This document shows, in pieces, positions 1,298 through 1,385 of a stretch of 16,776 nucleotides of DNA. The notes beneath the pieces were generated by a model, which was not told the DNA's origin, made no database searches, and was given only the letters and a program-made list of their open reading frames with translations. The position numbers were made by a program, and so were the translations under genes. The DNA comes from Escherichia coli (GTDB taxonomy: Bacteria > Pseudomonadota > Gammaproteobacteria > Enterobacterales > Enterobacteriaceae). The stretch is from the NCBI RefSeq assembly GCF_003334765.1, contig NZ_QOWT01000053.1. One strand, given 5' to 3'. Every line of letters starts with the position of its first letter. Position 1 is the first letter of the stretch.

Positions 1298-1385
1298 CTT
1301 TTTTAAATTGCCCCTAGATGAATGCACGGGCGGAGAGGAAATTCCCCTTCGCCCGTGTCAGTATAATTACCCGTTTATAGGGCGA

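Follow-up and report, generated by a model that had tools for sequence, protein, structure and literature searches.

A conserved hairpin between dnaK and dnaJ in Escherichia coli, a probable 3'-terminal structure of the dnaK-only transcript

RESULTS

The stretch of DNA analyzed here, called the window below, is 16,776 nucleotides long and represents, in reverse orientation, the beginning of the E. coli chromosome. The dnaK reading frame, identified from the open reading frames and their translations, occupies 3302..1386 on the minus strand and ends in a UAA stop codon at 1388-1386. The dnaJ frame follows on the same strand with an AUG at 1297-1295 that opens the conserved start MAKQDYYE. Between the two lies an intercistronic spacer of 88 nt (1298..1385, minus strand), delimited by the reading frames and their translations and covered by Rfam family RF02031. 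The original prediction had this spacer and its gene context right, and a hairpin does lie, as it claimed, past the dnaK stop codon and ahead of the dnaJ start. DnaK must far exceed its co-chaperone DnaJ, though one operon encodes both.

A promoter scan of the minus strand returned no sigma-70-like site in the spacer or just upstream of it. The dnaJ AUG is preceded by AAUUUAAAAAAG, which on a reading of the sequence has no Shine-Dalgarno match at normal spacing, a feature that probably lowers DnaJ further at the translational level. Two additional coding possibilities were rejected. Extension of dnaJ to a GTG at 1325-1327 (minus strand), inside the 3' arm of the hairpin, gives a frame of 386 aa that we regard as an artifact of the open reading frame listing, with an in-frame stop in relatives; a small open reading frame starting at the AUGUUA of relatives has no conserved reading frame and is missing in E. 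coli.

The main hairpin, P3 (1325..1357, minus strand), was recovered both by RNAfold and by an inverted-repeat search. On the mRNA strand, CACGGGCG at 1357-1350 pairs with CGCCCGUG at 1332-1325 to form the lower stem, with 17 nt between the arms, and both arms are exactly where an 8-bp GC-rich inverted repeat had been predicted on the minus strand. The 17 nt had been described as an open, purine-rich loop, a description that needs revision on both points: they consist of 8 purines followed by 9 pyrimidines, so that the two halves pair with each other, and the RNAfold structure is a hairpin of 14 bp, interrupted by a single A·C mismatch and capped by a loop of 3 nt. The mismatch (A1349·C1333) sits directly above the lower stem, the upper stem pairs AGGGGA (1348-1343) with UCCUCU (1339-1334), and the loop is AUU (1342-1340). 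In the inverted-repeat search the same structure appears as two 16-nt arms with 88% complementarity, separated by 1 nt. The folding energy of P3 is about -24.6 kcal/mol, which makes it a stable GC-rich hairpin of the kind required of intrinsic terminators. The folding check proposed for the minus-strand spacer as a whole gave a clear result, -32.7 kcal/mol compared to -19.4 ± 3.1 kcal/mol for 200 dinucleotide shuffles (z = -4.3), with 0 shuffles folding as well as the native sequence.

Perfect, GC-rich inverted repeats of at least 8 bp with loops of at most 20 nt are found at 4 loci in the 16.8-kb window, compared to 1.15 ± 1.24 hits in shuffled sequence, and about 0.006 such repeats would be expected per 88-nt spacer. 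Besides the spacer repeat, they comprise two terminator-like hairpins and the thr attenuator, whose terminator stem (15162-15187) is part of the threonine operon leader/attenuator matched by Rfam RF00506 at 15155-15274 on the minus strand (121 bits). The repeat ATCCCCCC/GGGGGGAT at 5548-5567, with a 4-nt loop, looks like an ordinary terminator, and its sequence coincides with that of a strong 3' end which the Term-seq table assigns to mog / antisense to satP (PMC7815308, supplement 1). The repeat GCGTGACC at 6241-6264, with an 8-nt loop, likewise looks like an ordinary terminator.

With flanking sequence included, the closing pair of P3 has a probability of 1.0 over the whole range of 25-50 C. 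Over the same range the dnaJ region from -13 to +3 keeps an unpaired probability of 0.60-0.64. We therefore rejected occlusion of the ribosome-binding site and an RNA thermometer as explanations, because the dnaJ start is not occluded and the hairpin does not melt up to 50 C. P3 is a single-copy element, with an identity of 95% or more in 5425 of the 5426 complete E. coli genomes, and one sampled E. coli polymorphism falls in the apical loop. Of the 5425 matches to the dnaK-dnaJ spacer, 3 are on records labeled as plasmids, and 1 complete genome has no match.

Conservation was assessed in a comparison set of 80 loci encoding DnaJ relatives, one per species. In all 78 loci with upstream flank, dnaK lies directly 5' of dnaJ, and the spacers range from 56 to 269 nt. 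Every free-living Enterobacterales spacer read contains the core hairpin, with exact CACGGGCG/CGCCCGTG arms in 39 of 44, and the lower stem recurs as ACGGGCG/CGCCCGU in Photobacterium, Enterovibrio, Salinivibrio, Vibrio, Shewanella, and Aliidiomarina. Pairwise identity in the lower stem is 0.984, compared to 0.917 for positions 1+2 and 0.596 for third positions of the first 40 codons of dnaJ (the J-domain), and the hairpin is among the most conserved non-coding stretches of the region. A covariance model of the hairpin (R1) gave one match per locus, always in the dnaK-dnaJ spacer, and none elsewhere in 340 kb. A REP element or other dispersed repeat was rejected on this ground and on the single place per genome that the hairpin holds in 5425 E. 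coli genomes. Four loci (L045-L048) come from reduced-genome Pantoea-like symbionts and a metagenome-assembled genome; two AT-rich reduced genomes among them retain CACGGGCG/CGCCCGUG, and in the two others the arms have decayed, e.g., to CACGGUCG...UGCCCGUG.

In the covariation check suggested for the hairpin, pairing is kept through sequence variation in the apical stem and in a second hairpin, P2, described below, whereas the lower stem yields no column covariation, its columns being invariant. In the RNAalifold consensus, 95% of the cells of the main hairpin pair and the shuffled controls do so equally, because of that invariance, and structural support therefore comes from the apical stem and P2, evaluated per sequence. 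The apical stem occurs in 41 sequence versions in 59 species, 37 of which are more stable than 95% of the shuffles made from them (mean z, -2.7), and its native halves pair at -22.3 kcal/mol, compared to -20.0 kcal/mol for cross-species chimeras; the apical stem thus varies with compensation across the 59 species. Fourteen apical versions carry GNRA tetraloops, of four kinds, and a mismatch or bulge between the lower and upper stems is conserved. The sense hairpin is more stable than the antisense one in 22 of the 41 versions and less stable in 6, the versions not being phylogenetically independent. A DNA palindrome for a dimeric protein is unlikely in view of this better folding of the sense strand and of an arm spacing that varies from 7 to 20 nt.

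Outside this range, Alteromonas, Pseudoalteromonas, and others have a different GC hairpin at the same place, followed by UUUUG or UUUGU. Hairpins after dnaK are found in both the enteric and the other lineages and are therefore general in these Gammaproteobacteria, the enteric ones being without a U-tract. In nine of these loci (L056, L058, L060-L063, L068, L076, and L078; Pseudoalteromonas, Alteromonas), the hairpin reads GGCGCGC...GCGCGCC, is unrelated to that of E. coli, and is followed by UUUUGCAUGUAAA, a terminator-like arrangement. The GCAUGUAAA tail of Pseudoalteromonas/Alteromonas resembles the enteric CGCAUGUUAAGGG. A boxA-like UGCUC...UUAA past the hairpin was rejected by eye, being absent from E. 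coli itself.

Other pairings in the spacer are more variable. A small 5' hairpin (1369..1383, minus strand; RNAalifold consensus) pairs GCCC at 1383-1380, which starts 3 nt past the dnaK stop codon, with GGGU at 1372-1369. It is favored in E. coli when flanks are included, and the mean local-hairpin probability in the Escherichia group is 0.61; GCCC and GGG are invariant, so this pairing cannot be tested by covariation. The same GCCC has an alternative distal partner in AGGGGC (1310..1315, minus strand), a conserved G-run just 5' of the dnaJ translation start region, with which it may form an outer helix, P1. In the isolated spacer the probability of P1 is 0.76 for E. coli, with a mean of 0.82 across spacers; with flanks it is 0.04 for E. 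coli, with means of 0.29 in the Escherichia group and 0.70 in spacers that carry P2. No covariation above shuffles was detected for P1, which is not robust in the folding models with flanking sequence, and we keep it as an uncertain candidate only.

The second hairpin, P2, lies 5' of P3 in Enterobacterales outside the Escherichia-Citrobacter-Enterobacter group and occurs in 24 versions, with a mean z of -3.1 and a native pairing energy of -12.7 kcal/mol, compared to -7.7 kcal/mol for chimeras. It consists of 7-12 bp between the stop-proximal GCCC..GGGC and P3 and was seen in Pantoea, Erwinia, Serratia, Yersinia, Photorhabdus, Edwardsiella, and others. Its sequence differs in nearly every genus yet always pairs (L017-L041, L044). 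The Escherichia group is without P2, which E. coli has lost.

The published Term-seq data of Adams et al. (2021; PMC7815308, supplementary files 1 and 3) include an in vivo RNA 3' end at MG1655 14145(+), in the sequence ...CGCCCGUGCAUUC-3'. We placed it at window position 1320 (minus strand) through the table's distance of -23 to the dnaJ start, so that it lies 23 nt 5' of the dnaJ AUG and 5 nt beyond the stem. Measured over 800-nt windows, coverage drops there from 1085 to 351, and in the presence of bicyclomycin from 1076 to 435. The Rho score of 1.25 is not significant (listed as "No"), and the threefold drop is thus Rho-independent. The peak is modest (some 1860 reads), and LB at an optical density of 0.4 was the one condition in which it was called. 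The original prediction had named 3'-end mapping as a check and the joint absence of conserved pairing and of a 3' end as grounds for abandoning the idea; pairing is conserved, and the published data contain both a 3' end and a step in read density at 1320.

Other transcript data from E. coli agree with a separate dnaK message. By northern blotting, the main dnaK band is 2.1 kb long and contains dnaK only (Stead et al. 2011; PMC3082872), and this band and the Term-seq end together agree with the earlier suggestion of a processing or partial-termination site that affects the dnaK:dnaJ ratio. In the tiling arrays of the same study, dnaK mRNA, not dnaJ mRNA, increased in the absence of RNase E, and dnaJ mRNA increased only in the absence of RNase III. 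In Salmonella, TIER-seq identified several RNase E sites inside dnaJ and none in the segment from the hairpin to the dnaJ AUG (Chao et al. 2017; PMC5222698), and in the rne-TS strain of that study dnaJ mRNA rose about 2.3-fold, compared to about 1.4-fold for dnaK. Strong RNase E-dependent 5' ends were mapped in Salmonella SL1344 at 13499-13509, a stretch that covers the final 10 nt of dnaK with its stop codon (228 and 199 reads at 13499, compared to 5 and 8 in rne-TS), and a weak one at the internal mismatch of the hairpin, 13544 (PMC5222698). The positions 13499-13509 are homologous to window positions of about 1386-1396.

Growth conditions alter the ratio of the two messages in Salmonella. 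In the measurements of Chan et al. (2025; PMC12077118), dnaK:dnaJ mRNA was about 1:1 when Mg2+ was high and 2.5:1 when it was low, with the dnaJ half-life shortened by PhoP and the dnaK half-life constant. A spacer amplicon behaved with dnaJ, not with dnaK, in their RT-qPCR experiments. They found no terminator-like sequence in the spacer and put forward cleavage or tpke11 as a hypothetical mechanism.

The 3' end at 1320 could be produced by a leaky factor-independent terminator at which some polymerases stop a few nucleotides past the hairpin and about one-third of transcripts continue to dnaJ. The GC-rich stem, the bicyclomycin-insensitive 3' end 5 nt past it, and the intrinsic-terminator score of 4.33 that Adams et al. 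assigned to this end, above their threshold of 3.0 (PMC7815308), are all in accord with termination, as are the UUUUG/UUUGU tails of same-position hairpins in other Gammaproteobacteria, where 14 of 32 have a terminator discriminant above 0, and the UUUAUUCAU tails of three Enterobacterales. The E. coli tail itself, CAUUCAUCU, has no U-tract (nT 2.1, or 2.11 at the best-scoring hairpin boundary) and gives a Lesnik discriminant of -15.9; the discriminant is below 0 in 45 of 49 Enterobacterales, a consensus terminator scan reported no site on the minus strand, and the Salmonella authors likewise saw nothing terminator-like (PMC12077118). Furthermore, a dnaK:dnaJ mRNA ratio that can be 1:1 is unexpected from a constitutive terminator. 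We regard a leaky terminator as less likely than not, but as the close rival of the explanation that follows.

We favor, with moderate confidence, the explanation that the hairpin is a cis-acting 3'-terminal structure of the dnaK-only transcript, most likely as a barrier to exonucleases, and results in less dnaJ than dnaK message. The dnaK-only reading in cis is supported by the Term-seq 3' end, the 2.1-kb main band, and the stable, conserved hairpin. Under this explanation, transcription of the operon would run through the spacer, and a poorly translated dnaJ segment would be cut by RNase E. The 3'-to-5' exonucleases would then digest the message as far as the hairpin, halting a few nucleotides before they reach it. 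A protected dnaK mRNA would remain, and the dnaK:dnaJ ratio would track the decay rate of dnaJ. As routes to the dnaK-only end, we place the exonuclease barrier slightly ahead of leaky termination because the ratio is condition dependent, the half-life of dnaJ is separately regulated, and the RNase E sites lie within dnaJ rather than beside the hairpin. Three observations oppose the decay route or sit poorly with it: the above-threshold terminator score of Adams et al., the RNase E result of the E. coli arrays, which is opposite to that in Salmonella, and the behavior of the Salmonella spacer amplicon with dnaJ, a poor fit to a 3' end past the hairpin unless the hairpin impedes reverse transcription.

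The spacer is already cataloged. RF02031 (tpke11) matches window positions 1298-1375 on the minus strand over model positions 1-77 of 77, with 69.6 bits against a gathering score of 43 (E = 7.5e-14), which confirms the statement, offered tentatively with the original prediction, that tpke11 had been proposed in this spacer. Databases label the entire spacer as the sRNA Tpke11, and the RefSeq annotation has nothing under the hairpin. RF02031 is also above threshold in Yersinia, Serratia, Hafnia, Pectobacterium, Xenorhabdus, Pantoea, and others; the homologous hairpins of Vibrionaceae and Shewanella gave no match to it at an E value of 1 or below, and that of Aliidiomarina gave a sub-threshold match of 32 bits. 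The family describes the same element, with the same main hairpin at the same dnaK-dnaJ position, and differs from our description in leaving the covarying P2 hairpin as such out of its consensus and in its Rfam type, gene/sRNA, whereas the present evidence favors an element that acts in cis within the operon mRNA. Weak matches to Rfam sX6, an unrelated Xanthomonas small-protein mRNA, were dismissed as chance.

The Tpke11 sequence in PMC6172242 is 89 nt long, i.e., the spacer plus one base, and has no mapped ends; in that study the sequence was extended into dnaJ to match the original northern blot (Rivas et al. 2001). Stead et al. call tpke11 "putative" (PMC3082872). An independent sRNA gene is not supported, because there is no promoter-like site and the boundaries of Tpke11 are those of the spacer; "tpke11" would be the spacer itself or fragments of it that survive decay.

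The sRNAs released from mRNA 3' ends by RNase E form a distinct class, which includes CpxQ, SroC, and DapZ. The spacer could supply a trans-acting RNA of this kind if the hairpin were freed from the dnaK 3' end, for example by an RNase E cut in the last dnaK codons, and then bound Hfq and paired with mRNAs, a role that would be compatible with one in cis. The likeness to the class is that the Salmonella RNase E 5' ends at 13499-13509, at the end of the dnaK frame, combined with a 3' end past the hairpin, would free a short stable RNA of about 65-70 nt; the Rfam type gene/sRNA accords with such a role, and the INTERFACE study cites Zhang 2003 for Hfq binding and reports binding to pgsA, prlC, and yehU in gel shifts. 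The gel shifts, however, were in vitro only and used an RNA reaching well into the dnaJ coding sequence, and overexpression gave no biofilm, motility, or fimbriae phenotype in published work. The spacer RNA differs from the class in having no U-tailed Hfq terminator of the type usual in Hfq-dependent sRNAs, no conserved single-stranded seed (conservation is highest in the double-stranded stem), and neither a target nor a phenotype in vivo. It also has no promoter of its own. The RNase E motif AG|AU of Salmonella is, moreover, AG|AC in E. coli, so that the key +2 U is missing (GAC for GAU). We consider a trans-acting role unlikely.

DISCUSSION

The element is already known as Rfam tpke11 and is ordinary in kind: no new kind of element is revealed, and the hairpin probably works like an intercistronic 3'-end or stabilizer hairpin. 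The REP hairpins between malE and malF were reportedly described as intercistronic stabilizers by Newbury, Higgins, and colleagues in 1987. They share with the model favored here a stem-loop that shields the upstream message from 3' exonucleases, so that the upstream gene is expressed more. They differ in being dispersed, whereas the dnaK-dnaJ hairpin is single-copy, one per locus and orthologous at one site, and protection of dnaK is here a hypothesis. Intrinsic and partial operon terminators have in common with it a GC-rich hairpin, a nearby 3' end, Rho independence, and partial read-through, but they carry a U-tract, which the dnaK-dnaJ hairpin is without, its discriminant being negative and a consensus scan missing it. 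In the Bacillus subtilis dnaK operon, Homuth et al. are said to have described, in 1999, a stem-loop between dnaK and dnaJ at which transcripts end, giving more dnaK than dnaJ message. Both the gene pair and the idea are the same as here; the sequence is unrelated and the lineage distant.

A barrier role needs stability only, and it therefore leaves the near-invariance of the lower-stem sequence from Enterobacterales to Vibrionaceae and Shewanella unaccounted for. One reading is that a protein or RNA binds the lower stem, or the whole multi-helix spacer, in a sequence-specific manner and adjusts dnaJ mRNA decay or translation by condition (Mg2+, heat). Such a site would suit a lower stem more conserved than either class of codon position in dnaJ, its persistence in Vibrionaceae, Shewanella, and Aliidiomarina and its retention in two reduced symbionts, the conserved mismatch or bulge between the stems, the condition-dependent Salmonella ratio, for which there is no known mechanism (PMC12077118), and the rise of dnaJ mRNA on loss of RNase III in the E. 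coli arrays (PMC3082872). No partner is known, however, and purifying selection on a GC stem would also give invariance, each single change being a weakening one; the dnaJ start region stays accessible, with a mean unpaired probability of 0.56, and the outer helix is not robust. We regard this reading as quite improbable. A broader version, in which the lower stem would be the docking site for a putative protein or RNA partner that sets dnaK:dnaJ by condition, or in which a regulatory RNA derived from the dnaK 3' end would act instead, seems to us doubtful. The docking site, if real, would supply a mechanism for the PhoP/Mg2+-dependent uncoupling in Salmonella.

Whatever its mode of action, the hairpin is the obvious candidate for the uncoupling of dnaK from dnaJ during Mg2+ starvation in the 2025 Salmonella study (PMC12077118), lying as it does exactly at the published dnaK-only 3' end. 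Whether it is a terminator, a decay barrier, or a binding site, the answer would explain how the ratio of chaperone to co-chaperone is set, and the database record that treats this operon spacer as a gene for an sRNA would be corrected.

The spacers of Mangrovibacter (L010) and of L054 and L075 in the comparison set measure 246-269 nt; in Mangrovibacter, about 160 nt of extra structured sequence lies between the conserved element and dnaJ.
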